From: Amoebophrya sp. A120
Taxonomy: Eukaryota; Protista; Dinoflagellata
Assembly (NCBI GenBank): GCA_905178155.1
Contig: CAJINV010000015.1
Location: 1,666,538 to 1,730,537, forward strand
Length of the DNA stretch: 64,000 nucleotides
Reading direction: 5' to 3'
The translations under genes and the position numbers were made by a program. Positions 12,551 to 63,300 of the stretch are shown here, piece by piece; position 1 is the first letter of the stretch; each line of letters starts with the position of its first letter. Below the pieces are notes generated by a model. The model saw only the letters and a list, made by a program, of their open reading frames with translations. It searched no databases and was not told where the DNA came from.

Positions 12551-12580
12551 GTGTTAAAAATACGAGGAGGTCGTGAGAAA

Positions 12581-12730: not shown

Positions 12731-12766
12731 TTTTTTACCGCCACGGCAGTGCCAAGCCGGTAAAAA

Positions 12767-15121
12767 ACGCCACGGTAGGTGTTAAAAATACGAGGAGGTC
12801 GTGAGAAACTGTCATGTGTATGAACCAAAAGAACCAATACCAATACCAATCTCTGAGTCTTCTATTTTGTGTTTCGAGTATGTGTTTAACTTTAACGTTT
12901 AAATTGTTTCTCGCCAGTGCCAGACCTATGAATCAAGTACACTCCTTTTAATTTTTCCCCATCCCAAAGAGACAAAGACATTTCCAAAAAATAGCGAGGC
13001 GAAACGATGCTCATACTGTAAAGAAATTTTATAGGGCTAATATGCTTTGCCTTTGGCTCTAGCTTTGATTGACAACTCCCGCAGGGTTGAAGCGCGGAAT
13101 GCCGATGGATGTTGTTGATGTTCATTCTTCTACTGCGGGGGGCGGGTTGTATCATCTTCTGCGTAGTGTGGCACAGTCGCAAATAACGAGAGTAGAGTGT
13201 GGCACCTGTTTGGATGCGCCAGAGAGTTGAACTAGTGATGTGAGGAAACACGTCGACGAGGACGAGAAAACCACAATGGAGGAGCGTGAGTACTAGTTCA
13301 TTGCGTCACCTTCAGCTTCTCAGGGTCTTCTAGGGCGGTTCTGGTGGAGAGAACAAACTTTCGTGGTGACAGTTTTTTTAGTGTTTTTCGCAACCAAGGA
13401 AGCTTCCTTTTGACAATGTGTTGCTTCATCGCAGTGAAGAGATAAGTTCGGTGTTCAATTTCAAATCATGTGAAAAATGGCCTCGTCGCGAAATCAAGCC
13501 TACAGTTCTCGGACGGCAGTAAGTGGCACGTTGGAGCGGTTGTAAGTAGCTTCCTTCGAGCGAAGTCATGGAGAAAGGAAGAGAACGAGACCCGCGGAGA
13601 ATGTTGCTTCGCCGAGCACCGCCCTCGCAGGGTCAGATTGATAAGGACGCGCGGGTAGGTGGTCGTGCCTCCAGTTCGAACTCCGATAGATATCCGGGCT
13701 CATCTTCATCGTCTCAGCGTGGTGTCGTACGTCCGCAGGTTTTTCCACAACCATCGGTGCAGCCACTTTTTTCCTCGGCAGCTGCGACTCAACACTGCGA
13801 GAAAAGCTGCAGTACTAGTAGAAGCAGCAAGTCTACTGGCAGGATAAATGTAAATGAAACAAGTGGCACGGTGGAGGAAGTTGTAGACCACTTGTCATCG
13901 ACCGGTAGTAGCAGCAGGGAGAGTGGTTAAAAATACGCCACGGTAGGTGGTTAAAAATACGAGGAGGTTGTGAGAAATTATCATGTGTATGAACCAAAAC
14001 CAATCGAATGTCTGTTGAGTCTTCTATTTTGTGTTTCGAGCAATATGTTTAAATTGTTTATCGGTCTGGCTCTGGCGATAATTGCCAGAGTCAGACCTAC
14101 GAATTAAGTACACTCCTTTTGATTTTTCCCCATCCCAGAAAGACAAAGAGAAAGAGATTTCCAAAAAATAGAGAGGCGAAACGGTGCTCATACTGTAAAG
14201 AAATTTTATACGGTTAATATCCTTTGGCTTTGGGTGTGACAACTCCCGCAGGGTTGACGCGCGGATTCATGCAGACGGATGTTCGTTTTTCTACTGCAGG
14301 GGGCGGGTTGTACTTATTATCTTCTGCGTCGTGGGACGCAATCGCAGATAAAAAACGAGAGCAGGAGAGTGTGACACCCGTTTGGATGCGCCAGAAGGGT
14401 GAGTTTAGTGATGTGGGGAAACACGTCGACAACGAGAAGAACGCAATGGAGGAACGTGAGTACTAGTTGTGCTTGTGTCAGCTTCTCAGGGTCTTGTAGA
14501 GCGGTTCTTCTGGAAAGAACAAATTTTCGTGGTGGCAGGAGTTGTTTTGGTGTTTTTAGTCGCTAAACAACTTTGTGACATTGTGTTTTTGCATATCAGT
14601 GTGATATTAGTTTCGGTGGTCAACATCAAATCATGTGAAAAATGGCGTCGGGTGGAAACAAACCCTGTAGTTCTACTTCGACGGCAATAACCGGCACATC
14701 ATTGGGGCGCTACTAGCCGCTTTGTTCCGTCAAAGGCATGGAGAAAGGAAGAGAGGAACGAGACCCACGGAGGATGATGTTCCAGTTCCTCCGCCACGCA
14801 CCGCCCTCGCAGGGCCAGGTTGACAAGGATGGGTGGGTAGGTGGTCGTGCCCCCAGCTCGAACTCTGCTAGATGTCCGGGCTCATCTTCATCGTCCCAGG
14901 ACGTCGTCGTACGTTGTCCGCGTTGGGAAATTTTTACACAACACACTCCTCCATCAGTGCTATCTTCAGCTAGAGCTACACACGGCGACGAGAACAGAAG
15001 CGGCAGTACCAGTAGAAGCAGCAGGTCAAATTCTACTGGCAGGATAAATGAAAATGGCACGACGGTGGAGCAGGAGGTAGCCCACTTGTCATTGACCGCT
15101 AGTACAAGCAGCGGGAGTGGT
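12767..15121 (+). repeat. Diverged tandem duplication of about 1.17 kb (copy 1 12767-13927, copy 2 13935-15121)
   Basis: Collinear similarity throughout, covering upstream DNA and the first part of the gene at 14738. Confidence 0.9.
13568..13930 (+). pseudogene. Truncated duplicate of the 5' end of the gene at 14738
   Basis: MEKGRERDPRRMLLRRAPPSQGQIDKD vs MEKGREERDPRRMMFQFLRHAPPSQGQVDKD; stops at the duplication junction. Confidence 0.75.
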
Positions 15122-18100
15122 GCCGTATTTGCTTCTCGAGCCTCATCTCGCCGTCGAGGAACAACAAAATCTTCCTCCGGATCGTCAAGCAGCTTAGCCC
15201 TCGCAACTACAAAACTCTTGCGGTTTCTGCTATTCGGCCCCTTGTTGACCACAGTTACAGTAGCTGCGACACGAAACGTGCTTGCATTGGGGAAAGGGAA
15301 ACTAGGCACAAAAACCAAAGTGCCTTCCCCCACACATCAGAAGCACACCCACCTTCACCTGCATCAAAATAGTAGGCACAGAGGACACGACCGCCAAAGT
15401 GGGGGCAGCTCGACGATGACTGTGGCAGCATCTCCTAGTACTACCTCGGAGGCCACGACAGCATCTCTTCTCCAGCGGAGAAAGCATGGGGCAGCAAATA
15501 AGAAAGAATCCGAGCACAAACAGCATCAGCAGAAGATGCAGCACTCTGCAGAAAATCAACAACATCTAACTTCGCAGAAAATCCACCTGCAATTAACCTC
15601 CGAAGCCGAGCTGACCCAAGCAGAAGAGGAACGCGCGGCGATTATGCGCGAGCACCAGGTCAGGCAGCACAAGAAGGAGCATAGAAGTAGTTCTTATGGC
15701 GGCGCAGCCGGTGGGAGTAAAAACCAGAACAGGAAGAAGAGGAAGAGTGAGATGAAAACATCTCCAACATCAAAAGCGCTTCAAGGAACAGAAACGGAGA
15801 GGACAAACGATAAAGTAGCAGAAGCGGAGGCTGGTTCAACCTCTAAGAAGAATTCCCATGAGCAGCTGGAGATGCAGAAGCGGCAGGAGCGCCAAAAGCA
15901 GAGAAGACAAAAGCAGGAGGACGCGAAAAGAGAAATGCTGCAGAAGATGGGGATTACCACTTCTACCACTAGCATGACCGGCGAGCAAGGCAAGAGCGCG
16001 GCCGTTCTCGCGGAAAAGCTTGAAGGGGCAACTGCATCCTCTGAAACACACTTTGCAACTTCTACCTCAGAGACATCGGCGTCGCACCAAGAAAGTGAAG
16101 AATCCAAAAAGGCACTAGTACAAAATAAATCACCCACACAAGTCGTCCTAGCGGAGGCATCGCGAATGAGTCTGGAAACTGCGGTGCAGCAAAATCAGCA
16201 GCTACAGCGAGAGTTCAAGTCCTTCAAACGAGTTAAAGCACAAATCAAAAAACAAAATAGCAGGAAAACCAGCGGTTCGACCGGCGTGGCTCACCCGCAC
16301 ATCAATATGTGCATGACGCTCGTCACCCTCGCCTTCGGTTGTTTCACCTGCGGGAATGACAACGTGCACAATTCGATCGCGAAACTGGACCCGGAGTGCG
16401 TGTTAGAAACCTTGAAACTGGGGTTGATCGGCGAGGTGCCAGAGGCGGGGGGAGTAGTTCCGGACTACTTCGACACCATCCAAACCGCGAAGAAAAAGTA
16501 CCGCTACGCGGTGCAGTTTCGAACGAGGTTACCCTACCAGGACGCGCTGTTGGCGTTTTACCTGAACATCGATCCGTATGGGTGTGTCAGGATTGAAATC
16601 GACAAAGTTGAAATAATCTGTGATGCATAAAATGCAAGGCACGACGTGACTGTCTTGCAGGGATTGCACGTGAGGCCGAAGATTGTGACGAGCCTGTCTC
16701 GGGTTTGGAATAGAGCTGCTAAAGTAGCATGACAAAGGATGCCTCCTTTCGCTCAACAGCATGACAAACTGGATTTCAGTAACGTCGAAATTTGTCGTGC
16801 GCCGCTAGGAAATTGGGCTTCCAACTGGTATCGGTTTTATGCATCACAAATTTTTCACGTTTGTCATTGTCGATTTCAATCCTGACGCTTCCATAGTCCG
16901 TTTTTCCCGAAGGACTCGCAGTTCACCAACTACCCGGTGATTGACAACCGATTTCTGTACAAGCCCGCGATTTTCCCGCACAACCACAGGCAACTGACGT
17001 TTATCCAAGAAAAAAACTGTGTAAGTGTAAATTTGTATTGCAGAAAATGCAAAACTGTTACACTTGTCATGCCGGACATGCATCAGAGGCAATTTTCGTG
17101 CGTGTTTTCACGTTCTAGCTACACATCATGACAGGTTTTCTGTGTCATGCAGGGCAAACTTGTGATGCTATTCCTCCAAGAAGCTTACACTTACAGAGTT
17201 TTTTTCCTGGATAACGTTGTCTGCGATGTCCATGGAAATTTTGTCTCGGGTTTTGACCGAACGCGGCGGGGATTACAAGGACATCCATAACAACAACATC
17301 CGGACGGATTACACCAACCCGGAAAAGACCAGCAACGTGAGCACCGCCGCGTTTCAGCGCGCGGACCGGAGAGATTTGAACGTTACTTACACGTTGGTCA
17401 ACGGGGTCCCAACGCGGAGCTGGCGGTCCCGCGTCGCCACGGTGGACATTTTGTCGCAGAATTCTTTTGAATTCGAAGTTTTGCCGGTGTTGGTGCAAGG
17501 GGATCCAACCGACCCGAACCAGCAGGATGGCGCCAAGCCTCTGTTAGTCGAGCACCCGCACCGGGCGAAGGTGGCCGGCACGGCGGTCACGGCCGCGCCG
17601 ATCGATGAGAAATTAGCGTACGAGACCACGATATCAAATGCAAAAACGTCTGGGTCTGGAATATTGCCGGGTTTGCATGGCCGAGAATGTCTGTAATGCA
17701 CGACCTAGCATCACAGATTTTTTTTTTAGAGGGTTTCCTGATGCCTATTCCGCATGACAAATGCCCTCCCCGCGTAGCTTCAACTAGACTCCTCTCGCTG
17801 ATCAAGCAATACAGATTTTTTTAGAGTCCAAAGTTAGCATCACAAGCTTCAACCTTCCAGACCGAGACACTTTTGCATTTGATGCACGAAGATAGTCCCG
17901 ATTGACACGGTGACAAACTGGAATGCGGCGATTTTAGACTACCTTGAACTGGCAACCCCGATCAACAAGCAGCAAGAATACAGTTACAACACGCTTAGGA
18001 AGCAGTTTTCCTTCTACCCCGCTGCGCAGCACAGCAAAATGATGCACGCGCTGCACGAGAACTACCACCGCAGGCTGGAGATCCAGCGGGAGCGGCTGTA

Positions 18101-19305
18101 CAATTTCCACCAGTACAACGTCTCAATTAACGCAAGTACCGTCCGCTCCTACTTTGACGTGACCAACGCCACGACGTTGAACGACACTTCCCTCGCGGCG
18201 AAGCAAAATCGCGGGATGCAGTACCTGTACAAGTTCCACGAGGGGTATGGAACTGTCAGGATCGAAATCGACAAAGTTGAAATGATTTGCCATGCATAAA
18301 ATACAAGGCACGAAGTGCCTGTCTTGCCGGGATGGCAAGTGAGGCAGATTCATTGTGACCCTATTCAGGGTTTGGGATAGAGCTGCTAAAGGAACATGAC
18401 AAAAGCAGTCTTCTGTGCCCAAACAGCATGACAAATTGGATTCCGATGCTCCAAAAATTTCTCATGCGCCGCTTGAAAATTGGGCTTCCAACTGGTATTC
18501 ATTTTATGCATGGCAAATCATTTCAACTTTGTCGATTTCAATCCTGACGCTTCCATAAGGGGTCCGGGTGGGCCGCGGATCCGGTGTTTCAAAATCCGGA
18601 CAACCCCTTTGCGGGGTGGGACAGCGAAATCGAGAAGAAAAAAGAACGTTTGGAAACCTGCTGGGGGAAATGGTGGGCGGACAGCAGTTATGCATTGCAA
18701 AAGCATCGTACTAGTATGAATTGCATTACAAATTGACTTAGCATTGCAAATTGAACTTGTAATGCATGAATGCAATCACAATCACTCAAAACGAGTACGA
18801 TGCTTTTGCTGTGGACAGCAGCTACAAGTACGACGGCACAAACTTCACGAAGCACGACATCATGATGATCCAGCCGTCGACCCAGAAATTGATCCCGACG
18901 AAGATCACTTTGGGGAATCAATTCGGAACCGAGTTGTTAAAAACGACCGATGAACACCCCGAGCTAATGACGAGCAACGTTTCCTACAAAATCTGCGACC
19001 TCTCCACGAACCCGGGCTGCGGCCGGGCGGGGGCGTTTTATCTCGATCCGAGCGGTGCGCCGTTTGACTACACAGATGGGAACACTTTTGCCTATTACGT
19101 GGACAAGATTTTACGCATCGGATTGCCGGCGTCGGTCACGAGGATTACGGAGGAGGAGGATTCGGCGGAGTCGGGGCATTTTCACGACGATACGGTCATC
19201 GACATGAACAAGTACAAGAACCAAGCTGGCGAGTTCAACGACCTGCGCTACAAAAAACTGAATCACCACGTGTACGACGACTATTTTGACGATACGAAGC
19301 CGTAG
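14738..19305 (+). CDS. Large hypothetical protein (low-complexity N-half with a hydrophobic segment, globular C-half); 5 introners
   Basis: Frame restored at junctions: LNIDPFFPKDSQF; QLTLSAMSME; ADSSYKYDG; ends DDTKP*. Confidence 0.8.
16577..16895. mobile_element. Introner family D
   Basis: TATGGGTGTGTCAGGATTGAAATCGACA...TGTCGATTTCAATCCTGACGCTTCCATA; DR ATCCG/GTCCG. Confidence 0.93.
17002..17213. mobile_element. Introner family F
   Basis: TATCCAAGAAAAAAACTGTGTAAGTGTAA...TTACACTTACAGAG(T)nCCTGGATA; DR ACGTT. Confidence 0.93.
17632..17884. mobile_element. Introner family B
   Basis: TATCAAATGCAAAA...TTTTGCATTTGATG; DR CACGA. Confidence 0.92.
18246..18557. mobile_element. Introner family D
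   Basis: Long TIR; DR AGGGG. Confidence 0.93.
18689..18817. mobile_element. Introner family A (short)
   Basis: TATGCATTGCAAAAGCATCGTACT...AGTACGATGCTTTTGCTGTGGACA; DR GCAGT/GCAGC. Confidence 0.88.
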
Positions 19306-25400: not shown

Positions 25401-28400
25401 GTTTGTGACGCAAGTGATCACGAACGTGTTGGAGTTCTTGTGGAAAGAGCAAAACCAGAACCACGCATCCGCTCCGTCTATCGCAATCACGGTTCAACAA
25501 TTGATTATCCTCCTGGACGGGTTGTGCTTGCTGAAGAAAATCCTACCACACCTAGTGAATTCCGCGGAATTGGTATCGAAGAAAGAAACATTCGTATAGT
25601 GTAACTTTGTGATGCACAACATGCGCACTGATTGCGGCTGTCATGCTGGGCGTGCATTGTAAGGGAAACTCAAGTACTAGCGCGTTTTCACGTACTCGTA
25701 CCATCTGCGCATGACAGGTTTTCGCTCTGACTCCAGACAGATTTGTAATGCTGTTCTCCCGAAAAAGTTACACCTACAATCTTTTTTTTTGGATAATTGG
25801 CGCATTTGTCCACAAACGACAATTTCTGCAACTTAGCGTGGGGCATCCCCGATTGGGTCCCCTACATGGTGAGCACGCAGGAATTTTACACCCCCGGAGC
25901 GTACAACCAGGGAAGTAGCTCTGTCACGACCGCACCCTTGTCCGGCGAGCTGGTCGCGAAGACCCTTTTCCTGAGTCTATGCAAGAAAAAAACTGTGTAA
26001 GTGTAACTTTCTTTGAGGAACAGCATCACAGATTTGCTCTGCATGACAGAGAAAACCTCTCATGCGTAGCTAGTACGTGAAAACACTCACGAGAAGAACC
26101 TCTAACGCATGTCCAGCATGACAAGTGTAGGCGTTCTTGCGCATCCTCTACCTCTGCAACACAAATTTACACGCTACGCAGTTTTTTTCTTGGATAGAGT
26201 CTCAGCCCCCACCAATACACGACGGAATTAGATAAAGGACATGGTGGGGCGGCTTCCGGGGTACAACATCAATTGCAGCAGACGCAGGACTCTCCTCTGA
26301 TGCAGAAGCTCTTAGAAGTCGAGTCGCAGGCTTTGTTCGGAGTCTCGCCGGAGTACCAGGGGGTGAGTGCTGTGCGGTATTGGACGACGTTGCGGAAGTA
26401 CTTCTCTTCGAATAGTAATTCGACGAACTCTATCAAATGCAAAAATGTCTGGGTCTGGAAGAATGTGAACTTGTCATGCAGATTTTCCATGACCCTAGAG
26501 GTCTGGAATGCCGGGCCTAGCATAACAGAGTCTGTGAGGTCTCTTTCATGCCTATCCGGCATGAGAAACTCCCTCCCAACTTGGTCGAAAGTGGACAGCT
26601 TTTGACACTCATGCAACACAGATTTTTGCATGATTCGGATTTAGCATGACAATTTGCAATCTTCCAGACCCAGACACTTTTGCAATTCGACGAACTCCCT
26701 GTACTTGGCGATCTCGCAGATACTCGAACAGCGGAAGCAAACTGGTGAGATTTCCGGGCTCGGGGCGGATTTTTCTTCCTCCGGGGGGCGGGATCGGGAT
26801 GAAGAACATGAGGGACCGAGGTATACTAGGAAAGCAACACGCTTCTGCAGCTATGCAAAGAAACCAGTGAAGACATATCCTATCATCGCAATACTCACGT
26901 TCCTCTTATTGTGTCAAAAGGATTCGCATCAGTTATTACATTATTCAATCATGAATAAATTATATACCAGGTGGTGGCGCAACGACCCAGCTACGGATCC
27001 GATTCGCACCCTCCCAGCGCCTATCTCCACTGTGGATTACGAACAAGAAGCCTTCCCGTCGGAAGAGCAGCTTTTCGCGGATCTAGGAACGTATTATGAG
27101 GAGCAGCAGGCTATTTTGATGTCCATCATGATGTATCCTGTGCAAAAGTATCGTGCTCGCATTGCAATCATGCATTACGAATTTTTTTATTAAGGTAAAT
27201 CCGCACTAAAAATTTTATTTCTCCTGCTGAGGAAAGTTGTAATGCATTTATACGAGTGCGATACTTTTGCAATGCATATCATGGAGCAGCAGGAACGGGA
27301 TGAGCAGAGCGGGTTCCGCTACGACACAGGGGAATACGACTACGGATTCGGTGATGTTTATGGGAGTATCAGGTTTGAAATCGACAAAGTTGAAATAACT
27401 TGTAATGCATAAAATCGATACCAGCTAGAATCCCAATTTTCATGCGGCGCATGATAAATTTCGGCACCGTCTAAAAAATCCAGTTTGTCATGCTGTTTGG
27501 GGACAGAAGGCGTCTTGTGTCATGTTACTTTAGCAGCTCTATCGTAGACCCCAAACAGGCTGACAGTCGGCCTCACTTGCCGTCCCTGCAAGAGAGGCAC
27601 TCCATGCCTTGCAATTTCTGCGTGAGAAATTATTTCAACTTTGACGATTTTAATCCTGACGCTTCCATAATGTTTCCGCAATCATGGAGGCAACTACTCC
27701 TGGGGGAATGGAAGGGCAGCTGTCAGAAGACGAAGAAGACGGTGATGAAACGCTCTCCAGCATTTTCGCACGCCCCAGTCCGAAGAAGGAGGCATTTCAG
27801 CCGCCGGTGGCGCCACCTCCCGTGCAGCAGCAGGAACAATCAACAACGCGACGACGAGAACAACCTCTCCCCGAGACCCAACTCAGCACAGAAACTGACG
27901 CCAACCCGCAGAAGAAGCAAGACCCCTCAGTTCCGCTCGGCCGGCTGGGCGCGCTGGATTTGCCGAGCTTGAACCCGAACCAGAACAGGGGAAAAATGCT
28001 TGCTGGGGCAGAGGGAAGTGAGAAGAAGTCGAAAAAGGAAAAGGGATTATCGCGGGAGAGGTTGAAGCAGATTGGAATACCGCTGAATTTCCTGAAGCAA
28101 CAATCCGCAATTTCGAACCTGAACGTCGATGACTATTCCCATTTATGCTGCGCGATCGATGGAAAATTGATGGGGGAACCGGTCCGGTGTACTTTACCAG
28201 AGAAGAAGCATTTGGTATTTGAGAAGTCGGTGTTGGAGTTGTGGTTCAATCAGATGGGGAAGGTTTGTCCCATCACAGGGGATTTGATGGCCATGACCGA
28301 CTGCAAGCGGGATAAGCAGCTGGAATTGGAGATCAAGCAGTTCGCTTCGAAATGGAGGGAAGTAGCGGCAGCGGTTGGCGGTGCTGGCGGAAATCAGCAA

Positions 28401-48300: not shown

Positions 48301-51300
48301 CCTCGTATCAAATGCAAAAATGTCTGGGTCTGGAAGAATTCATGTTTGTCATGCTTGTCTGGCATGACTCTTAAATCTGTCATGCACGTTACCCAAGAGC
48401 TCCGTTTTTCTGTGATGCAGAGAGAAGCGCAGTTTGTCTTTGTCATGCAGACTAGGCTGCAACACCTAGGAGCTCAGAAACTTGTCATGCTGAGCCAGCA
48501 TGTGTAGCCTCATCATGAGACGCCACCCAGCATCACAAGTTTCCAGACCCAGACACTTTTATTTTTGATACCTCGAGTGGGGCGTGTTCCGGCCGCTGTC
48601 CCAGCGCTACCTGGCCGAGGATTACCAGTACGATGTTCTCAACCCAGTAACCAACGAGTCCAAGCAGATTTTCAATCGCAGCGCCTGGGCCACGACCCTG
48701 ATCGGCGATTTGGGGGACCTACCGATAGGGCATTTCTATCCTGAGTAAAAACGTCCCCACACGACCAGATTCAATATGGGAAATCTGCTAGACAAATTAG
48801 CCAGCTTTGGTGGTTTCGCATGACAAGTTTATTTTCCTCGTAGTGTACACCTATGCAGAAGTGCTACAGTGTGTGCGTGTTTGGTCCCCCCTGAGCGACG
48901 TGTGTGTGTGTGTTGGTCCACACCCAAGTCCGAAAAAACCTAGCCTCATAACAGCCGCGCCCTTATGGTATAGATCAACTGTTCGTCATAGAAGATCGGC
49001 GCTCAGATTGCTCTCGGGCTGGAGGAGGGAGTAGCGCGCAGCAGTCCGCTAAAGGGCACACTGCCAACATCATCATCATAAATCCTTTCCAACTACTTCA
49101 GAAGCATCACAGATCTAGCATATCATGCCGATTATAGCGCCACAAATTCCAAATTGAAATTACGACTAGAGAATGCTTCTCATGGGGCTCCGCATGAGAA
49201 ATGTTTTTCGCATGGAGATTTGCACGACAAATCTGGGGTGGGGACGTTTTTACACAGGATGACTTCCCCCAGTTCTTCTTTCTGGATTGGTTTGACGAGA
49301 AACTCACGTACGGAATTATGCACGAAAAAAACTGTGTAAGTGTAAATCTGTGATGCAGAAAATGCAAAACAGTTATACTTGTCATGCTCGACATGCGTGA
49401 TCGGCTCGCTTCCTATGTGTTTTCCCTTCCTATGTGCGCATCACAAGTTTTTCCTGTCATGGCAGAAAAACTTGTGATGCTGTTTTCCCAAAAGACTTAC
49501 ACTAACACAGTTTTTTTCGTGCATAGGAGTCCCGATTTTGAACGAGGACGGAAACACAGGAGCAGCTCATGGGCAGAGCGATACTAACGGGAACTCCAAT
49601 TCCTACGAGATCTTGTGGCCGTCCGTAGCGGATATCGGGCCGATCCTGTATTGTGTGCAAAAACGCTCCCACCCCATAGTCAAGTTGGTAAATCTGCAAC
49701 ACAAAGCTCCAAGTTTTGGGAGTTTTGCATGACAAGTTTCCATCTGTAGCGTAGTGCTGTTTAGCGCGAGAGCAGCCGGATGAGAAAGCGAGCTTCTCAT
49801 CCTGTTTACAACATTACAAAGTCCAAAACACGATGGGAAATCATGCCTCTCATGGAGATGCGCATTACAAATCTTCCTGTCATTGCACATTTGCATGACA
49901 ACTATGGGGTGGGGACGTTTTTACATAGGATATCCTGTTTCTCGCATTCATGGCCTCGATCGTCGGGTTAACTGAGACGCTGTTGACGTTTCAGAAAATT
50001 GCGTCCGAACTGAAGCTGATCGATAAAACAAGCTTGGTGCGTATGAGAGTGTCAGGATCGAGATCGTCAGAGTTGAAATAATTTGCGATGCTTAAAACCG
50101 ATACCAGTCCGAAGCCCACTTATCAAGCGGCGCATGATAAATTTTCCGAGCACCGGAATCCAATTTGTCATGCTGTTTGGGCACAGAAGACTGCTTTTGT
50201 CGTGCTAGTTTAGTAGCTCTATTTCAAACCCTAAACAGGCGCACAATCGGCGTCACTTGCCATCCCGGCAAGGCAGGCACTTCATGCCTTGCATTTTATG
50301 CATGACAAATCGTTTCATATACCAACCCCTGCCGTAGCCATTTTGGCTCAAGATCCTTAATATACCAACCCCTGCCGCATTGGCGGGGGGGATCCGCTGG
50401 GCCCAGTCACAATCTTCAACAGCGACCTAAATGTGAAAACATAAGAGGGGGAGCAATGCCGTAGATAGATTAGATCCTTCGTGATTCCTTTTATTTTGTC
50501 CTCAGATGCCACGCCGGCACCTCCCCCGAGTCTCTGCGTCTAAGAAGTAACTCCCGATCGTGGCGGGTCAGAGTCATTTTCTTCTCTTATTGTAGTCTCT
50601 AGCTCAAGCCTCGGCACCCCGTGTGCCTGGAGGCACGTGTACAAAAATGAATCAAAATGACCTGGCGGCGGCGCCTCGGGAAGAGCCCGACTTATCGCCT
50701 CGCACCCTCTCCAGAAGGCGGTAAGTATGTAAGTGGCTCGCGGGCTGCTCGCGACAGAGGAGAACTCGAGCCCCCGCGTTTTGAGAAGTCGCGACCCGAC
50801 CTACAGTGGCGCTTTCGCTGTTTTGCCCCTGCGTTGGTTGCTCCAGACAGGCCAGACGACGGAACCATATCGGGTCTGGAGTTCTGGAAAGGGTTACGGC
50901 CACCATGCTGCCGGTGGTTTAAGCAGCACGGGCCGGCAAAGACGAACGGGCGCCAGGTTTCGCGCGGATGCCCCCCAGCTCGCCCAAGCCAGTAGCAACA
51001 AGCTCAGTCGAGTCTTGTTCCCCAAGCACAATAGATGCGAGAAAGGGGCGCACAATAGATGCGAGCTCAGGGCTTGGCAGCGCTGGGGGAGATGGTCTTG
51101 GCCACGACGCGGGAGCCTTCCCTCCGTGGAATCGACAATGGGCCTGGCGTTGACGTTTTGCGCGTCTATCTTAGCTGCGCAGCGGCTCCATCGTCCGTCA
51201 CGTCCGCGCCTCGTTTGGGTCATGAGGTCATGATGTGCAGCTCCGTCGATTCATTCTCAGCTGCAACCTTTGCACTAGCCTCTGCCTGGCTCTCAGGTGC

Positions 51301-54300
51301 TTGGCTGTCAAAAGACAAAGGCGCTTTCATATTCTTACCGGAATTTCCTAAACCGCATCGCAGGCTGGTTTCGTGCCTGCGGTGTCCGTAAGATTCCGAA
51401 TAATATCTACTTTGTACGCATGGGACCAGCTGCAGGCTGCTGCTTCCTCATAGCAGTTAGCCTGGTCGGTCCCTGCACAGTTTGTGAGCACTATAAGTTG
51501 GATCGTTGGCGAACGTTAAACGTGCTCTGGTGGCGACAAGTGTGGACCGTTGGCGAACGTTAAACGGCCCAGCCGCATACTGCCGTGTGCGTAATTACAC
51601 TGGGGGGATTCAGGGTAGTACGGAGACGATGTTTTGCGGCATCACCCTGCAGCAAAAGGTGAATGAGCTGACCAGGAGTTTCCTGCTGGCGTGCTATTGC
51701 CCGCGCTCCCGTCGCCTTGAAACGCACCGCATCGCCCGCGCGGCGGATGCTCTTCTTCTCGATCTGCAAGACATGCATTACTCTGCCCGCACCTGGACGC
51801 CGTACTCCTGTGCGGACGTGGATTCCCATTTCCATGACCCCGATGACCCGGCGCGTTGCAATCTGGGGCACTTTGACACTCTGCAGGCTACTCGGGCTAG
51901 GTCGTTTCTGCAGGGCATTGTGGTACAGGAAGGCCTCAGCGAAGAGGCTGCTGCGGATCTACTTGCGGTGGTGGACGATAAAGCGTTGTGCATCCTGGCG
52001 CACAAAGACGATCTGGACAGCGGAAATCTGGCACGAATTTTCGCCACGCTCAAGCAGGTCACCGAGATAAACTCCAGGCATTGCCTGCAGTTCTTCTCAA
52101 AGTCCAAATTTGAAGTAATTGCGGGCTCACCCTACTGGGGCCCGGACGTGAGTTCCAGCAATCTGGCCAAAGTGTGGGAGCTGGCCGCCAAGCACTTGAA
52201 CCCGTTCTGTGTCACGCCGGTAGTCAGCCTGAAATGTAAGCTGGTCGGGTTTTTGTTCAACACGCACAGCTCCCAGGCCGACGTTCTCTACGGACAAATT
52301 TTGGCTAGGCTGAAGTGGAGCCGCATTGCTGCGGAACTTGTCTGCAAGTACTTGCGGTATGTGAATGGGGTGCAGCTGCGTACCATCCTGGTCTGGGCCT
52401 ACATCAGTTCCATTCTGCACTTACTCGTGGTCGGCGTGCGCATCTTCCCTGAATCGTACTGGCAGGAACTGCTGTTCCAGATGTCGTGGAGCATTGCGGA
52501 CATGGTTGGGCTTTCGGTGGAAACGACGAAGCACTACCTGGAGGCAAACTGCATCCCGCGGCACGACATACACAAGTTAATTTTTTCGAAGCAAATGCTG
52601 AACCTTACCGACCCCCGCTTGTTGGCCACGAAAATTTTGCGATGCGGCGCAGCAAAGTGGACGGCTATCAGTGGCACTGCCTCCGTCGCGGCCTACGCCA
52701 CTGCCCCCGTGCTGATGGGCGCGGACGACAAGGAGAAAGCACTGGGATTCAGTGCCGAGGGTCTAGTGACATTGCGGGAGATCCAAAAAGCAGACTTGTA
52801 CACACAGGATGTGTTGCGCGACGTTGTCGGGGATTCCGCGTTGTGCAAAAGCCTGGCGACTACTACCACCGATTCGGTGGACGCCGCAGGCAGCAATGCG
52901 TCTGCCCTGCCCAGCCTTTTCGTCAACAAGAGCTCCTCTCCTTCCGCAGCTGTCAGAGCCACTGTGCTGGTGCCCCTGCCCTCGGCGTCGGGCCGTCTCT
53001 CGTCCGCACTCAATCGCAACTACGACGCTCCTGTTACCCACGCTGCCCCGCCTGCGATTTGTAATGCCTCCGGCTGCTGCTTCTTTTTCCGCGAGAACGA
53101 CTGCGACCTCGCTGTTCTGTATAGAGGCAAGGCGGCCAAGACATACCACACTTCTGACCATGGCGAGTTCTCCTGCCCCAGCCTCCGCTCGGACGTGCGG
53201 TTTTTGTCTTGTGTGGTGCGTGCAATGGAGGATTGGCTGGGGGATTGTGCTGCCGGGCTATTGTCGACGCATCTGATTGTGGCCGGTGTATCGCTGTCGC
53301 CATCTCTGCGTAGCACTGCGATCCATCGTCTTTTCCGGAGCATGATTTGGCGATGGGCTCCGGGTCGGGTCAGCATTATTTATCATAAACGCGGCGGCGC
53401 ACTGTCTCCCATGATGTACTCGGAGGCCCAAGCTGTTTCTCATCGTTCCGACATTTTGGATCTACCAAACCGCGGTGCTGGTGTCGTCTGGCCGATCCGG
53501 ACACTCAGTCTGCCGTTTGACTTCAAGACCAACGATGAAAAACTCTCCTTGCAGCATTTCCGAAATCGGGTGAACGCGAGGTGCAAACCGAAAACCACGG
53601 CGGCAACCACGGGCGGTGGCACGCTGGGGGCTTCTAGCACCAATACTACGACGGGCGGCGAGACATTGGTGTCGGGGGCTGATCCCTCTACGGGGACGCA
53701 AAATACCGCGTGCGGTTTACCTATCCCGACGGTGGCGGACCCTATGCCGGTGGAAAACGTTACCTGCACCCAGCAGGCGCCTACTGGATCGGCTATGACT
53801 TTCCCGACCGCGCCACGGCCTGCCATGCCAGCTATTGCTGCGCCGCCGACCATGGACTCCCAACTTTCGAACACTGGTGAGCAGGTGCCACTTGTGACGT
53901 GCAAGCCCGCCACATCACTCCCTACCCAGTCCAGCCGCCGTGGTAAACAGGACACCGCCGCCGCCAATTCTACCAAGCGCGCGGTGACTACCAACGTTAC
54001 AGTCAGCCCGGAGGCCAAGTCGAGGAGAAAAGGCAAAAAAAATACCACAGGAACCGGCCGCAGCACTGTGGTGCCCCACGTCACTGCTACCCAGTGACTT
54101 TTCTCGGTATCGCCGTCTGCTTCCTCGGACCAGCGGATTTATCTGTTAGCTTCAGTGTGAAAACCAGAACAGAAAATTAATGCAACTCATGTCTGTGTAG
54201 CGATATAATGACTGCGTTTTGGTGTAATAGTTTCGCAGGTGCGCTTGTGTCTATTCCTGACTATGCATCGCGTAGTCTGTGCCTGTGGTTGGCGGGCCTA

Positions 54301-57300
54301 TATATTTACGCACCACGCGCTGACCTTGGCTGTGTAGTGACTGCGCCGCCACTCCGTTACAGCGCAAGGTTGTGGCTTCAGGAAAAGATCTGTTTTTTTG
54401 TCTATGACTGAGTCGCGCTCTGAGTAATCCTGGAGTGTGGACTGCCCTGATGTGTGAAGGCCTGCCTACGAAGACAGCTGAGATACAGAGGACATGACTC
54501 CTGCTTTCGTTGTTTGTCGTTTGTGTAGTTTCGTCAATTGCAGCACTTTCATCCGCAGACCTGCCCGCGAGCCTGCCTCTGGCGCTGTCTGCCTGCGCGC
54601 TACCATCGACCCGGTGTGGGCGTCTAGTTCTGCCTGCCCCCATCGACGGCGTCGGGTTTTGCTTACATCGCGCGATGCTATGCTGGTCGGAGCCGGTTCA
54701 TCCTGCCTCCCGCCGTTTATCACCGGAGCATCCTGGGTCGAGCGGAACTCGGCGACCATCTGGATGGGCAATTTATCCTCCCCGTGCATGCTTGTCGACC
54801 TGCTGCTGGTGTGGACCCCGGTATCATATTTGTGCTGCGCAAACAATGGGTGCCGCATGCGCCTTTCCGAGCGAAGCACGGCGTTCCCCCGGGTGCGTAT
54901 CACCAACTACTCGCGCACGCCATTCGACTTGCTGTTAGTCGCGATCCCTGTATCTAGATCTTGCTGCACAGTTAAGAGCGGACACTACTGCCTATTCGTA
55001 GTCTGTCATGCGCGGAGCACTTGCTGGACCTGACTTTTTACTTGGCCTGTTTTGCCGTTCCTGGTACTACACTGACACTTCGCGCTCGACATTTACTTCT
55101 ATTTATTTCTATAGGCCTTGGTCTTCTGTATTCCATTTGTGGCCGGGATCTCCGGAGCTTTGCATGCGCGCGCTCTTTGTATATTCTCGGACTGTTTGCA
55201 TTGGACCTGGTTCCTGTTTCGGGATTTGTATTTGTCGCCCTCTGTGGCCCCCCGATGTGCACTTACTACGCTGGTGGTTGCTGTTGCTTAGTGTCTTAGT
55301 CTGTTGTCTTGTCCTCCTTATCATTTTATTTTCGCTCCGACAAGCATGGCAATCTACTCCGCTTTGCATGTGTCCGCTCAATTTTTTAGTTTCCATACAG
55401 ACCCCGGGTAGTGCCGTCATTGCGACCTTCCCCCTACTGGACTCCACCTGTGGCTGCTGAACAAATCTTCTCCGCGTGGTGCCGCTGTTTAGTGATGGAT
55501 ACGCTATCGATGACGTCATGTTGGGCCCGAACATTGATTCCCGAGCACCCGACCGCCGATCTCCAGTACCCCGCCGGCGGCGAACAGATTCCCAGGCAGT
55601 GGGTCTCCGCCGTCTCGTCCGAGCCTGGGGCTCAACTCCCTCGCCATGTAGCCGGTTTGGGGCATTTCATGGCGTGTGCGACCGTTTTCCGGCGCAACAG
55701 CCTGTTTCGGATCCATGTTGTACATCACGCACGGGTAGATCGTTCCAACAGCGCACGATGACGACAAGGAAGACGACGAGCCGCATCAGCGAGCCACCGG
55801 CTTGATGAGGGTTCCTGCAGGCCCTACCAGCTGTCGCGTCCTTGGTTCGGTACCTCCTCCCCGCCGGTCCAAATTAAACCTGCTGGCACCGACTTCCGTG
55901 ATTAAGATCCTCCACGACCTACATCTTCCTGCTGCTACATACGCTGGCCGTGTCTCTAGATGGTTTTGCTCGTCCTCTTCGACTAGTAGCCAGGTTGGAG
56001 CTTTTCGTGGGGTGTGCGACCTTATTCCGGCGCAGTAGCCCGTTTGCGGATCCATGTTTTACATCATGAACGGGAGGTCGTTGCAGCAGTGCATGGAGAT
56101 GACGGGCAGCAACAGTCGTGAGCCACCGGCTTGTGGATTACTGCCGCCTACGGATCTCTCCTACTTGGCAAAAGTAAGGAGTGAAAGTTTAAAAGTTAAG
56201 AAGGTTCATTTTATTAATAAAGAATGTCAGTAAAGCGCTCTTGGTCTCTTGTGAAGTCCTCTGCGTTATCCTTTTATCTATATCGCGGCTTTATGGTGCT
56301 TAGCACCTGGGTCCTTGGCCGACCCGCTCGATGACTATCTACCCGCGCTGCAGGCTCGCTCCCCTGCATGCGTCCTTTGTGTGGACTACCTTGCTATTTG
56401 TGTATCGTAGCTCAAGCGTTCACTGTCTCGCAAAAATTACTCACAGCTTATCACTTACATGATAAAAGACGCTGCTTAATTCTAACTGCGTGTGTGCTCT
56501 TGCTTGTTTATTTTTTTTTTAGTTCTCTATGTCGGCTCGCGCCCCGGCTCCGATTCTGTCTTGATCTGTTTATTCCCGGCCCGCCTCCCGGATATAGTTT
56601 TTGTGCTTTGTCTCCTCGTGGCTCCACACCCACTGCATTTATGGCCCCTGCGACTGCCGACTTATTATTATTTTGGGTTCGCGTCCCCACTTTTGTCCTC
56701 CCCTCAGCCGTATCCATGCGTTTGGCGCGTGGTTACACAGGCCGGGATTGAGGCCTACTCTTATTGTATTGCTTGTATGTGGCGACTTGCATGACTCGGC
56801 GTCGCTTAGTCTTTTCTATCTGTCCGCCGCGTGTTACCTACTTCATGATGAGCTTATGTGGTGACTTTTCTTGCTGCTAGTGCATGACTCGCTGGTGATT
56901 CGTTGCCATGTGGATCTTGGCGTGCGCATTAATTCTAATTTTACTTCCTCACCGTCGCCTGAAAAAATGCAACTACGTATTTATTTGTTTCGGAGGCCCG
57001 CTTCCCTCCTATCTCTAGTTTCTTCAGCCGATCCGAAGGTAGTTTGTATGTGTGCCCTGGCTTTCCGATATGGAGCTCTGATTTGCATGCTAAGTCGGAA
57101 AGTCGCCTCATGCGCGGAGTTGCTTGAGGACACGTTGTATGATTTTGGGACCACGTACCTACTAGCCCGAGGGGGTGCGGGAGCCTGAAAAAACGAACGT
57201 TAAACGTATGTTGGCGATAAGTTGGACTGGTGGCGAAAGTAAGGTAAAGGCAGCGTAAGTAGTTGGATGTGCCCGGGGATGATGGTGATGGCTTCGGTCC

Positions 57301-60300
57301 GCCTGACTCCGCGACCTGGTGGCCGAACCACGTGCGGTTCGGTGCCCTTACAGGTTGTGTAGTGGTTTCGGTCGGTTTAGCATGACAAATCGTTTCAACT
57401 TTGGCGATTTCAAACCTGACGCTTCCATAGTGCAACCAGGAGCGGCGGGGCAGCACCCGCACCAGAACGGCGGCGGGGCCTCTTATGACACCCTCAGAAT
57501 GGAAATCCTCAAAGTGGAAATAATTTGTGATGCATGAAATGCGACACCAAAAAGACTGCATTGCAGATTGCAGAGAACGCAATGGAAGCCGACTATTGTG
57601 CATCTACGGGCTCAGACTTGGGCTCCTGATTAGCATGAGAGGAGGGCACCCCTTTGCCTAACTAGCATGACAGACACGTTTTGAGTGCCCGGGAAATTTG
57701 TCATGCGCCGACTACAAATGGTGCTCCAACTGGAGTCGTTTTTTTGCATTACAAATTATTTCCACTTTGAGGATTTCCAACCTGAGGCTTTCATACCTCT
57801 TTGGCTTCTAACGCAGGGCGAAGCGGAAAACATGGTGCTGGAACTACAGACTCTAACAGCAACGCATCTTCGCCAAGAGATCGCAAAATAACGACAGAGA
57901 AAGTTTTTCACTCGGAGGAGGCGGATCCGTTGCTGCGAGACGACCGGCTTTCGAGTTCAATAGGTACAAGCGGAGATTTTAATATCAACTACGATCATCA
58001 TTCTAACAACTACCAGGATATTGACATCAACGTGTCGAAAAGGAAAAGCGGCCAAGAAAATAAACAAGATTTGCCCGCCTCTCCCCCCTCCACCGAAGGA
58101 GATGTAGGTATCCGAACCCCGAAACTGCGCCTGAAATTTTCCTCCAAAATCCGGGTTGTATCCAGCTACCAGGAGCTCTTTGTGCAGGGCGTCGCGAACT
58201 TGGTTTGTGGGCTGTTTGGCAGCATGGGTGGGTGTGCGATGATTGGCCAATCACTGATTTGCGTCCGAAACGCAAGTGATGTGGAGATCCGGGAGTCTGT
58301 GATCGGGGCCGGGAACATTGGCAGACTGGCCCCGATCTTGGCGGCTTTGTTCACGTTTACCTTAACAATGTACCCGGTGGTGCTGTCTATCATCCCGGTT
58401 TCCGCTTTAGTCGGCGTCATGCTGGTATCCTCTGCAAAAGTATAGTACTCGTATATTAAATGCATTACAAATTTCCTGAGCATGAGAGATAAAATTTGTA
58501 ATGCTGATTTTTTAGCTTTGGAACAAGATTTGTAATGCTTGTTTGCAATCGAATCACTACGAGTACGATTCTTTTGCAGTGGATAGCTGGTCGTTTCCTA
58601 CCACACCATCGACTTTCGGTTTCTCCTATCAAATGCAAAAGTGTCTGGGTCTGGGAGATTGCGAGATTTGTCATGTTTGTCTGGTATGACCAAAGAGGTT
58701 GTGATGCGTGTCCAAGAAGAGACCCTTTTGCCTGTCATGCAAAAACGCAGTTTGTCATGCGAAAAACGCAACACAAAGAAGCGCACACATTTCTCATGCT
58801 TGGCTGCGCATTACAGAGCATTCACTATTCCCAACGCAGCATTACAAGTTTCCAGCCCCAGACATTTTTGCACTTGATATCTCCCCGCGGCTTGGAAAGC
58901 GGTTTTTTGGTCGGAGGAACAGAAGAAGAAACGGTTCGCTTTGGTGTATAACAAGGGAGGCCTTTTGGTGGAGGTAGAGGAAGCGGAGATGGAGCTCGCT
59001 CTGGCCGCGAGATCCTTCGTGACCGAGCGGATCCACGGGAAGGGAATCAACGAGGAAGAGCTTTTATTCGGAGAAGAGAAAGAAGACGAAGAGGCTCTTC
59101 ACAACTATATCGCAGCACAAGCGAAGAACAGTTCTTCTAAAAGCGCGAAGAAGAAAAAAAGAGGCAAAAAAGATTCCAAGTTCATCACGGTGCCCCGGGA
59201 AACCAACATGAAAAAAGACGACCCGGTTTTCTTTCCCAATTTTGACCCGGAGAACCCGAAGCTGCTCATCGATCCGGAGCATTTGACCGAAGAAGAGGAG
59301 TCACAGTTGCGAGAGGAGGACGCGATGCTTCACGCCAGCCTCCAACAGATGAAAAAAAAATCAGGCAGTTTCTTTCATCATGCCGACTTCGACCATGCTG
59401 GTGATGGGCATAAAACCCCCGGGATAAATAAAAGCCGAACGCCCTCGAAGATGTTGATAATGACCCCAATTAAGAAATCAGGCAGCAAGGAGCAGTATCC
59501 TGTGCAAAAGTATCGTACCTACGTAGAAATTGCCTTTATGCATTACATACAAATCTCTACTACTTTGTCATATGTAAAGCAGCATTACAAATTATGCTGG
59601 GCTAATTTCTTGTAATGCAACTTATTATACTAGTACGATGCTTTTGCATTGCATAAGCAGATGCAGAGCCCCTTTGCAGGTCATATTCATACACCAGCTT
59701 CCGTCGATCCCTTATCAATTGCAAAAGTGTCTGGGTCTGGAAATTTGTGATGCTAATTCATGAATTGTGGGGACACTGCTATAGGCAGCCACGCATGGCA
59801 AGTTTCTGGGCTCCTTTGTGTTTCGCTTTCCGCATGATAAACTACATTTTTGCATGACAGGCAGGAGGCTCTTTTCCTGCTCACGCATTACAGGTTTAAG
59901 AGTCATGCGAGACACGCATGACAAACTTGCGCCCTTCCAGACCCAGACATTTTTGCAGTTGATATCCCTTAATGGGGAGCAAAATCAGTTCTATATCGGG
60001 GAACCACACCGGCAGCAGCAAAGGCATATCCTGTGTAAAAACGTACCCACACCATAGTTGTAATGCAGATTTGCAAAGACAGGAAGACTTGTAATGCGCA
60101 TCCGCATGAGAGCCATTTCCAATCGTGTTTTGGAATTTGTGATGCTGTGAACAGGATGAGCAGATGCATCTGTGATGCGGCTGCACTTGCTAACCTGAAC
60201 TACGCTGCGGAGTGCAACTTGTCATGCGTGACTCACAAAACTCCTCGACTTGTGTTGCAAAATCCCCATCCTGACTCTGGTGTGGGTAGGTTTTTACTCA

Positions 60301-63300
60301 GGATAAGGCAGCAGCAATCATGATCATCACGATCAGTTTGAGTGCATCCAGAGACGGCGCGGCAGCCTCGAGCGCGTCGTGGTAGCGGCCTCGTCGCCTA
60401 GCGACCTTCAGTACGTGGGCGAGGACAATACCACTACACATCTGCATGCCCAGCATCATGGATTTACTCTTGGTAGTAGTCAGCATCTACTGTTGGGAGG
60501 CACGAGCAAGCGCACCAGTCAAGGAGAGGCTTCCCTGGTCGTGTCCAATCATTCGGTAGGGTCGAGGTCTAGTGTGCGGTCCGGGACGGGGCCGGGGACG
60601 AATGGCACACTATCAAATGCAAAAATGTCTGGGTGTGGAAACAACTTGTGATGCTGGGTGGCGTATCATGAGGAGGCCACAAGTGCTGGCTCAGCATGAC
60701 AAGTTTCTGAGCTTCTTGGTGTTGCCTATTCTGCATGACAAACTGCGTTTCTGTATGACAGAAAAATGCGGGTCTTGCGACGTAATGTGCATGACAAATT
60801 TAAGAGTCATGTGAGACAAGCATGACAAACTTGCATTCTTCCAGACCCAGACATTTTTGCACTTGATACACGCACTGCGACGACAAAACGACAACCATTC
60901 TCCCGATTCAGCTGGGGCTGGTTGCTATGAAAGCCTCAGGTTGGAAATCCTCAAAGTGGAAATTACTATCTATTATATTCATGCGAAAGTAGAGGTCTAC
61001 AGAGGGTCGAAGAGAGGTGGCCGAGAGGTAAAAAAGAGGTCGACAGAGGTCAAAAAGAGGTCGACAGAGGTGGAGAGGTGGCGCGGGAGGTCATTCGAGA
61101 GGGTGGCCGAGAGGGTGCGCGAGTATAGCCCGCCGAAGGGCTCGCCCTAAGGCCGCGCCTATAGGGACCAGAGGGGGCCGAGAGGGTCCAGAGAGGGCAA
61201 GCGAGAGGTGGACAGAGGTGCCGGGAGGTTGCGCGAATAAGGGCGAACCTCTCGCGCACCCTCTGGGCCACCTCTCGGCCACCTCTGTAGACCTCTACCG
61301 GCGACGAGTATAGCCGGATTATTAGCAACACCTCTCGGGAGAGGTCAAAAAGAGGGTCTGCGAGAGGGTCAGAAAACCCCGAATCCGCCCGGCACGCGGC
61401 CGGTTTTGTTTGGGCCTTTTCATCGCGCAGGCCCGCACCCTCTCGCGCTACCCTCTCGCGCACCCTCTCGCGCACCCTCTCGCGCCACCCTCTCGCGCCA
61501 CCCTCTCGCGCTACCCTCTCGCGCTACCCTCTCGCGCTCCCCTCTCGTGCCAACCATTTCCGTCGGGAAGCAAATAGGGCGGGGGCGGGATGGTGATCAA
61601 AATAGGGCAGCGCGGCCCCCGTTCTGCTTCCTTCGGCACCTATGTCGAGGTGGCTTCTCTTCGCCCCCAAGCTTCGTTGCAGTTGCTCCCTGCGCATAGC
61701 GCCAGCAGGCGCGGGAAGCGCGCAGGAGGCCGCGCGGGCTGACATGGCGCAAACCGGCGCCAGTAGTTCCCTCGGTCTGTCACGCTGTGCCCAAAGACCC
61801 GGCGCTGCGGTCCGACCCGCGCATTGTCCTGCCCCGCCACAACAGCCTTGCGCCCCGGCGGCAGCCGGGGCATGGCTGGTATTTTGTAATGCAAAAAAAC
61901 GACTCCAGTTGAAGCGGCGTTTGTAGTCGGCGCATGACAAATTTCCCGGGTACTACTTAAAGCACGTCTGTCATGCAGGTTAAGGCAAAGAGGTGCCCTT
62001 CTGTCATGCTCAGTTGTAGCACGACAATGAATTCTTCACCCCTAGCAGGACAGTAGTCGGCCTCCATTGCGTCCTCTGCAATACAGTGCTTTTTGTCGTC
62101 GCACTTCATGCATCACAAACCAGTTCCACTTTGAGGATTTCCATTCTGAGGCTTTCATAGTTGCGTCCGACCGAAATTCGGTGTCGACCGGCCCGCGGTC
62201 TCGAAATATCCTACGTAAAAACGTACCCACCCCATAGTCAAGATGGGGAATCGGCTAGACAAATCCACAAGCTTTGGCTGTTTCGCATGACAAATGTGGA
62301 CGCGTAGTGTAGTGCTGTTTGAGCTAGTTCAGCAGCATTACAGATCTAGTCTTTCATGCTGATTAGAGGATAACAAATTTCCGAACACCATTAGAAAATG
62401 CTTCTCATGGGGCTCCGCATGAGAAACATTTTAAGCATGCAGATTTGCATGACAACTATGGTGTGAGGACGTTTTTACACAGGATACGAAAAATCTCCTC
62501 CTTATCCCAGGACGTGGTAAAGTCGCACGACTCGCAGCTGCACCAGACGGGTTCAGCGGCTGTGGACAGTAGACACCGGAACAGTACAAGAACCATGATC
62601 AAGCGGGGAAACAAGAATAAACAAGTCGGTAGTGGTCCAGGTCCATCATACACCTCGACTCCCGAACAAGAGCAATTTTCACCTGCTGGCGGAGGTACTG
62701 ATGAGCAACTGGAGATGTTGAACAGCGACGATGAAGACGAAGTAGACACTCCCTCCGGAACGACAAGTACTAAGAATCGCAGTTATATCTTCAAGAATCC
62801 TCTGTACCACCGAGAAAGGCTGGGCACGATCGATTCGCAGCTAGGGTTGCCCGGATACTTCCCCCCCACCGCTGGTCGCGAGACAGCTACCTCCAGTACT
62901 ATGGGCGACGAACAAGAAGATGTTGAAGATTCTTTTTCTGAAGAGCAAAGAAACCACTTCTATGATTTGGAAATTTTGAATAACCGGGCGAATGAACACC
63001 TACACGATGGCGAGGCCGACACCTATGGGAGTGACAGGACCGAAATCGACAAAATCGAAAAGTTTCATTTTGTAATGCATAAAATGTAGGGCACGCATGC
63101 CCTGTGTTGGGGACGACCACGCAAATGAGACCGAGCGCAACAAGCCTGTTTAGGTGAAGTAGACGATGCGCTGCCAGAGTAGCATGACAGGAGCAGTCTG
63201 CTTTGCCCAAACAGCATGACAGATCGGATTTTGGTGCTCTCGAAATTTGTCTTGCGCCGCGTGGAGACTGAGGCTCGAACTGGTATCAATTTTATGCATC

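Follow-up and report, generated by a model that had tools for sequence, protein, structure and literature searches.

What kind of retroelement lies inside an introner of a protein-coding gene, with a complete dinoflagellate spliced leader (DinoSL) sequence next to its 5' end, and how did it come to be there? This question is raised by a locus of Amoebophrya sp. A120, which we analyzed in a window of 64,000 nt (contig CAJINV010000015.1, positions 1,666,538-1,730,537). An earlier sequence-only reading of this window had proposed a single 7-kb element carrying both the spliced leader (SL) and its own open reading frame (ORF). Our analysis does not support this: the leader belongs to a 1.42-kb element, which we call A, and the ORF to a separate, truncated long interspersed nuclear element (LINE), which we call B. 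We are highly confident that the 7062-bp insert is a composite, with LINE B lying within the multicopy element A, and A within the introner. The nesting has four tiers, not the three proposed before.

The insert spans 50318-57379, between two copies of an exact 18-bp direct repeat, GCATGACAAATCGTTTCA, at 50300-50317 and 57380-57397. Both this duplication and the 7062-bp length had been given correctly by the sequence-only reading. The insertion site is composed as follows:

50300..50317, + strand: left copy of the outer 18-bp target-site duplication (TSD); it starts with GCATGACAA and lies within the right terminal inverted repeat (TIR) of the introner
57380..57397, + strand: right copy of the outer 18-bp TSD
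50042..50317, + strand: left part of the host TIR introner, whose empty form was aligned full-length to its paralogues
57398..57429, + strand: remainder of the introner's right TIR
50037..50040, + strand: left copy of the introner's 4-nt direct repeat GTGC (right copy at 57430-57433)

Exact 14-26-nt repeats starting at GCATGACAA are common between paralogous introners of the window, so repeat identity alone is weak proof of a TSD. We regard the 18-bp repeat as a TSD because the empty site, obtained by deleting the insert and one 18-bp copy, is colinear with all three aligned introner paralogues (18246-18557, at 84.6%; 27359-27672; 16577-16895), each of which has a single copy of the site. This restored form also bears out the claim that the insert splits an introner. 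When the introner and one GTGC copy are taken out, the host frame stays open and its translation reads LVQPG; record 16 of sequencing run X6 ends at 50036. As to the extent proposed for the introner, 50042-57434, its start stands but its end does not, as the TIRs stop at 57429 and are followed by GTGC at 57430-57433. The naming of the host gene as SulP finds weak support, since its resemblance to PF00916 stays under the cut-off (E 0.04-0.22).

Inside the insert, a repeat search found no long terminal repeats and no TIRs, and a self-comparison of the window found no introner matches, in line with the earlier claim. The introner motif GCAT[GTC]ACAA occurs once inside the insert versus 168 times outside it in the window, where it is spread over several introner families. 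It may be a functional element that these introns have in common.

The division of the insert into two elements is observed directly in a second TSD and in copies of A without B. Our comparisons draw on 4 of the 10 listed runs, among them X1, a DNA run, and X3, which we guess to be RNA. The parts are:

50318..51566, + strand: 5' part of element A, multicopy, with no recognisable protein and with diverged, indel-rich relatives in X1 and X3
57207..57379, + strand: 3' part of element A, without an A tail and with the deepest contig coverage of the insert
51554..51566, + strand: left copy of the inner 13-bp TSD
57194..57206, + strand: right copy of the inner 13-bp TSD
51567..57193, + strand: element B, predicted to be a 5'-truncated LINE with an apurinic endonuclease-like (APE) and reverse transcriptase (RT) ancestry, 5627 bp
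57188..57193, + strand: A6 tail of element B, with 3 more A in another copy
51510..51522, + strand: unoccupied second copy, in A, of B's target motif CGAACGTTAAACG

Element A thus amounts to 1422 nt and is interrupted by the 5627 nt of B. The exact 13-bp repeat that flanks B is CGAACGTTAAACG, and its right copy is directly preceded by GAAAAAA, the 3' end of B. Related contigs join the ends of A without B, from 51553 to 57194 and from 51522 to 57267 in X3, and from 51566 to 57233 in X1; X1 loose ends at 57194 and 51522 also read through the empty B site. Because the joint of the B-less copies falls on the exact 13-bp repeat after GAAAAAA, we conclude that A holds B with B's own TSD and A tail. 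No head-to-tail joint of A was present among the 7 joints found. Two further statements of the sequence-only reading hold in part: the absence of poly(A) is true of the outer end, that of A, but not of the inner element, which ends in GAAAAAA, and the one long ORF is present but belongs to B and is 5'-truncated.

Contig depth in X1 also differs between the two elements, although summed contig depth gives a rough contrast and not a copy number. Depth is flat at 45 over 51718-55272, like that of the flanking exon pieces (44.5 and 48.9), and reaches 81-387 by bin over the 5' part of A (50533-51480) and 1124-3001 at sites in its 3' part (57311-57340). Relative to the B core, A therefore stands at about 2x at its 5' end and at least 25x at its 3' end. 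Over the last kilobase of B, depth climbs from 119 to 329, a pattern that truncated copies would give. A second B end seen in the contigs has A9, then GAACGT, then truncated B, which suggests that the GAACGT motif is used repeatedly by B-type insertions.

Could the insert still be one autonomous, SL-capped retroelement of 7 kb, whose short copies arose by internal deletion between the 13-bp repeats? Direct repeats can mediate deletion, and a single frame is open from 51497. We nevertheless hold this to be very improbable, and largely refuted already: some 890 N-terminal residues are missing from the ORF, whose homology begins exactly at the inner repeat, the A tail before the right 13-bp repeat varies in length, and the inner part is absent from several diverged copies.

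What, then, is B? Two features of the composite's inner element are needed here:

51569..54097, + strand: open frame of 842 codons, with RT domain 4 GIQGS (51605), VVDD (51968-51979), the thumb and the C-terminal part
55648..56093, + strand: 108-nt internal repeat, 82% identical, in the 3.1-kb 3' untranslated region (UTR) of B

A phmmer scan of 1.84 billion representatives returned 12 relatives of the B ORF. Nine were looked up and eight were named, all eight being Amoebophrya proteins. The best is P0001 (1738 aa, 58% identical) and the next has 1679 aa (44%). The matches to P0001, P0002 and P0003 start at query residues 22-26, corresponding to 51560-51572, and the tblastn match starts at 51563, with the B ORF aligned to P0001 residues 892-1738. 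Homology starts at B's left TSD, and the 5' truncation point of B is thus observed in the alignments themselves. P0002 corresponds to GSA120T00003284001. The first ~890 residues of the full-length relatives have no tblastn match anywhere in the window. B shows the 13-bp TSD, the A6 tail and a cut at P0001 residue ~892, and has neither the endonuclease nor RT domains 0-3; this copy is consequently not autonomous. Its frame is unbroken over 842 codons, which suggests that the insertion is recent.

The domains missing from B were observed in its relatives. The full-length proteins carry N-terminal FWNxG, ETK, GDFN, TIDG and DH motifs, which we take to be those of an APE-like endonuclease, and endonuclease profiles match P0009 (PF03372, Exo_endo_phos, E 4e-4) and P0002 (PF14529, E 0.017), both under the curated cut-off. 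VDD is invariant in all eight aligned rows, as VVDD in B and as YVDD or FVDD in some relatives. A 619-residue stretch of P0001 was modelled at a mean predicted local distance difference test (pLDDT) of 69.7, and Foldseek ranks 1-13 for this model are all L1 ORF2p or R2 (best E 2e-5). VIA gave Z 15.5 for R2 (root-mean-square deviation 6.7, 426 aligned) and Z 12.7 for L1, with Z 14.1 also listed, and the Atlas RVT_1 score listed with this evidence was 0.93; the Atlas score of 0.77 for the B ORF serves as a lead only. The RT of B's family is thus of the non-LTR type, as recognised through the relatives. Judged from these alignments and the model, B is a 5'-truncated LINE of a divergent Amoebophrya APE-RT family, predicted to be unable to move itself.

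Direct searches with the B ORF were negative: Pfam gave 0 families, with RVT_1 matched neither in B nor in its relatives; phmmer and profile searches of the PDB gave 0 matches; a word-based search gave 0 matches among 7992 candidates, and a profile word search returned only its own first row. None of 82 candidates from viral contigs was confirmed, and a metagenome scan (51 of 64 parts) gave 1 locus out of 594 candidates. The single-sequence fold of the B ORF (pLDDT 35) was unusable. HKDD had been considered as the catalytic motif of B and was ruled out, as the alignment shows VVDD.

Three side observations concern this family. In all aligned members that span the region, RT domain 4 and the catalytic DD motif are separated by a segment of about 100 additional residues (P0001 residues ~910-1020, window 51620-51960), which may explain why Pfam misses the family. 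In P0003, the LINE protein is preceded by a V-SNARE domain (E 7e-8); its gene model was likely fused across an insertion. Finally, a diverged X1 contig matches the 3' UTR of B at 55329-55636 (53 differences, 7 gaps), and more distant B-like elements are thus present in run X1.

We turn to element A and its head:

50331..50352, + strand: 22-nt DinoSL, 13 nt inside the insert, followed by ATCC and no GT donor
50318..50330, + strand: additional 13 nt of the 5' junction, re-copied from 50361-50373

The DinoSL lies where the sequence-only reading had placed it, and is the sole match in the window to the 21-nt core at up to 4 mismatches. An 18-nt repeat that had gone unmentioned flanks the leader (50317-50334 and 50360-50377), and the 13 extra nt likely reflect a template jump of the RT, a mechanism we infer. 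A similar 17-nt direct repeat is seen at the 5' junction of L001, the locus of P0001 (L001:3947-3990), and template jumping may be a habit of B's RT family.

All three ORFs of A are without a Pfam match (as are all nine short ORFs overall), and A does not match the N-terminal half of P0001 or P0002. Rfam gave 0 matches at E <= 5 over 50000-57600, and no known ribozyme. With this result and an SL as its head, rather than one derived from an RNA polymerase III transcript, A is not filed as a classical short interspersed nuclear element (SINE). A processed copy of a host gene does not describe the insert either, since the ORF is a LINE fragment and A is multicopy; origin by target-primed reverse transcription, as had been claimed, is supported. 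A fits a non-autonomous retroposon: it has no protein and no Rfam match, its relatives are indel-rich, its depth is 3'-heavy as in a multicopy element with 5'-truncated copies (copy numbers being rough), and it has the 18-bp TSD. We found no 3' end shared by A and B; near the end of L001, a weak match that takes in the target motif itself scored 24, where 30 shuffles reached at most 22.

Does the leader reflect an RNA of A that was trans-spliced? We consider an SL-headed A RNA quite probable, judging from one SL junction in genomic DNA, with no RNA record reaching 50331-50400. That trans-splicing sets the 5' end as a rule, as the sequence-only reading had it, is no more than a hypothesis, with one SL junction observed, none at L001 and no RNA in which the SL is joined to A. 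The leader could instead be accidental, the RT having switched to the first ~29 nt of an unrelated SL-capped mRNA and back, in the manner of U6-L1 or SINEU chimeras, with A not normally trans-spliced. Such an accident, which would be compatible with real targeting, agrees with the bracketing of the SL plus 7 nt by the 18-nt repeat, with its occurrence in one copy only, and with the similar SL-less duplication at the L001 junction. It requires two jumps rather than one, however, and the repeat reaches TTCA/TTAA where the target is joined, which is what the copying of a single continuous SL-A RNA would lead one to expect; an X1 contig break at 50347 is a weak hint of another sequence sharing the SL-A join. 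We thus regard an accidental leader as unlikely. It is far less probable still that the 22-mer is the organism's own SL RNA gene, an idea prompted by the one complete 22-nt DinoSL-like sequence per genome that the available part of Farhat et al. 2021 (PMC7789003) gives for two Amoebophrya strains. SL RNA genes have a donor after the exon and poly-T ends, as described in the accessible part of PMC3101222, whereas here the 22-nt exon ends in AAG, followed by ATCC and no GT donor, with no oligo-T terminator near. Moreover, the 22-mer sits at the TSD junction and its local fold is unremarkable (z -1.0).

Next comes the choice of target. The evidence comprises three junctions, namely this one, X3 record 9 and L001, and all three fit one target motif and register. 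X3 record 9 holds an A 3' end that differs at 10 of 134 letters and is without B; it runs to 57400 and goes on past the TSD position as CTGACGATT, which is another variant of this TIR. The introner at L001 belongs to a different family. It can be aligned with 6 intact relatives up to a point 18 nt from the start of GCATGACAA, where it breaks off with 22 nt of its end missing. Beyond this point come a 17-nt duplication and, after 1375 nt, the start of the P0001 ORF. Same-strand motif starts have a frequency of 0.0007-0.0015 per base in the window. As indirect evidence, only about 14 of 129 X1 contigs (0.11) run on into unlike sequence, and no loose end at 57379 was present among the 12 rows shown, with an introner end giving 159 such contigs. 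Landing inside introners, as the sequence-only reading had envisaged, is supported at these three junctions, and we consider it probable that the retroelement targets the motif.

Several points weigh against our overall account, targeting included. The target junctions are only three, and the other two are each seen without both ends. L001 shows no second TSD copy, its contig ending 1.7 kb after the stop with a 3' part that looks inverted or rearranged; an SL is absent from it, the best match having 7 mismatches in 21; and the 1375-nt stretch ahead of its ORF is unlike A, leaving the shared register as the only link between A and the P0001 type. Another 38 loose-end rows lie beyond those shown, and depth is a rough proxy that gives no copy number. 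That X3 is RNA is a guess, and its source may be an isolate lacking the insert. For B, the RT call rests on relatives, with no direct Pfam or PDB sequence match, and its ORF is at single-copy depth at >=80% identity, with no close source copy seen. Finally, at least 30-34% of the window consists of repeats and insertions into exons would be purged, so an introner location is nothing rare in itself, and survival bias favours finding any insert there.

This last point leads to a reading in which the composite structure is right and targeting is absent: insertion would be loose, with survival in abundant, harmless introners, and some copies would have been duplicated along with their introner. 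The repeat content of 30-34%, the 168 motif copies outside the insert and the small number of junctions are all as it would have them, and one ancestral insertion could underlie both this copy and that of X3. It sits less well with the same 18-nt register in two different introner families and with the few contigs that run into unique flanks, and the depth of A, far higher at 3' than at 5' (~2x vs >=25x the B core), fits separate truncated insertions better than co-duplication. We judge untargeted insertion to be rather improbable and retain motif targeting. As a side observation, L001:11600-12235 possibly holds an inverted second element: the AT skew reverses near 11600, and at 12165-12182 the motif forms a perfect palindrome with GTAGTGGTTT ahead of it, a feature shared with A's 3' end.

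Our model, taken as a whole, combines nested elements in an introner, motif targeting, an SL-headed A and a truncated B, and we regard it as reasonably probable. A LINE of the Amoebophrya family would nick at GCATGACAA with an 18-nt stagger and copy there its own RNA or that of A, which would have received the SL by trans-splicing before copying. At the 5' end of the A RNA, the RT would jump back through GCCG microhomology, re-copy 13 nt and join the target at TTCA/TTAA. B, a related LINE, would prefer the CGAACGTTAAACG motif in A, the present copy having been cut short in mid-reverse transcription. All layers would then leave the host message together with the introner. Having no A tail, A may pair with the nicked target through introner sequence that its RNA gained by read-through, by analogy with R2 and rRNA. 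A was likely placed by target-primed reverse transcription at a motif common to introner ends, by a retrotransposon family that likely aims at a short motif common to these introns and would hence be spliced out of the host message. If B prefers its motif, most B ends are expected next to GAACGTTA, and if the A RNA is trans-spliced, SL-ATCCTTAA joins are expected in RNA.

A wider scenario is conceivable, though we consider it less likely than not. A lineage-specific LINE clade, whose endonuclease reads the GCATGACAA common to many introner families, would use introns as a safe harbour; it would move the promoterless passenger A, which would be transcribed with the host gene, SL-capped and primed on read-through introner sequence, and a sister LINE would have specialised on A. 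The result would be a series of parasites in which each aims at its predecessor.

How does the insert affect the host message? A 7064-nt contig of X3 agrees with three stretches of the flanking exons at 0 differences; between 48733 and 57796 it has only 319 letters against 9062 in the genome, and is thus without the insert. This is compatible with splicing-out and no proof of it, as X3 perhaps comes from an isolate without the insert. In an exon reconstruction, 4145 border sets fit the 319 nt in frame, which is likewise compatible and does not fix the splice sites. The raw RNA run X8 has no coverage of the insert or of the flanking exons and is uninformative on expression.

Elsewhere in the window, a long block matching itself lies at 12539-15121 and 16574-16897; its related introner ends are spaced by 4010 nt, which suggests a local tandem duplication, and 61247-61547 holds GC-rich short tandem repeats (period 13 nt, 8.7 copies).

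Introners have usually been studied as makers of introns. If retroelements aim at a shared introner motif, introners would also be a niche in which retrotransposons persist in a compact, gene-dense genome, and GCATGACAA would stand out as a motif with a function in these unexplained non-canonical introns. B's RT family escapes Pfam, is annotated as unnamed protein and has probably been missed in repeat surveys. With a 9-nt target motif and an 18-nt stagger, the proposed role of the APE endonuclease is testable in vitro.

How does this arrangement compare with known systems? NeSL, SLACS and CRE are non-LTR elements tied to the SL sequence, which insert in SL RNA genes and carry a C-terminal restriction-like nuclease. 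Here, in contrast, the SL stands at the head of the insert, an introner serves as the target and the APE-like domain of the relatives is N-terminal. SL relics in the genome are a familiar feature of dinoflagellate retrogenes, according to the available passages of PMC12014239, and A resembles them in that a reverse-transcribed RNA has left a DinoSL in the genome at its 5' end; unlike them, it is a multicopy repeat without a recognisable protein, and its SL is complete and lies at a TSD junction. NARTc and RIME are described in part of PMC1874656 as short non-coding retroposons moved by a LINE, and L1Tc transcripts as unspliced and made from an internal promoter. In contrast to these L1Tc transcripts, A has an SL head, and we found no end shared between A and B. 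For SINEU, another short non-coding retroposon that a LINE moves, the accessible text of PMC4494074 reports heads that arise by template switching and possible transcription with the target.

Amoebophrya introners carry inverted repeats and a 4-nt direct repeat, and non-LTR elements are known in this genus, some of them classed as introners (PMC7789003 and PMC12130899, in the passages available); retroelements inserting into introner ends are absent from those passages. In the literature covered, from which subscription journals were mostly outside the search, we came upon no report of introners being targeted by retroelements, none of a non-autonomous dinoflagellate element headed by an SL, and no description of the four-tier nesting. 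The arrangement works like Tx1L inserted in Tx1D of Xenopus, where a non-LTR retrotransposon prefers a non-autonomous TIR DNA transposon (PMC6719617 and PMC4494074, as far as the available text goes). The likeness is one of behaviour, a retroelement inside a non-autonomous TIR transposon, and does not imply membership of the Tx1 clade. The host repeat here differs in being an introner, whose splicing would remove the insert as well; a 9-nt motif shared by several introner families appears to be the target; an extra tier is present, the LINE in its passenger; and the protein family lies far from known profiles. There are precedents for the parts, and a single junction carries the most striking step; we read the arrangement as target-seeking non-LTR retrotransposition, with precedent in kind and in a variant unreported in the literature we found.

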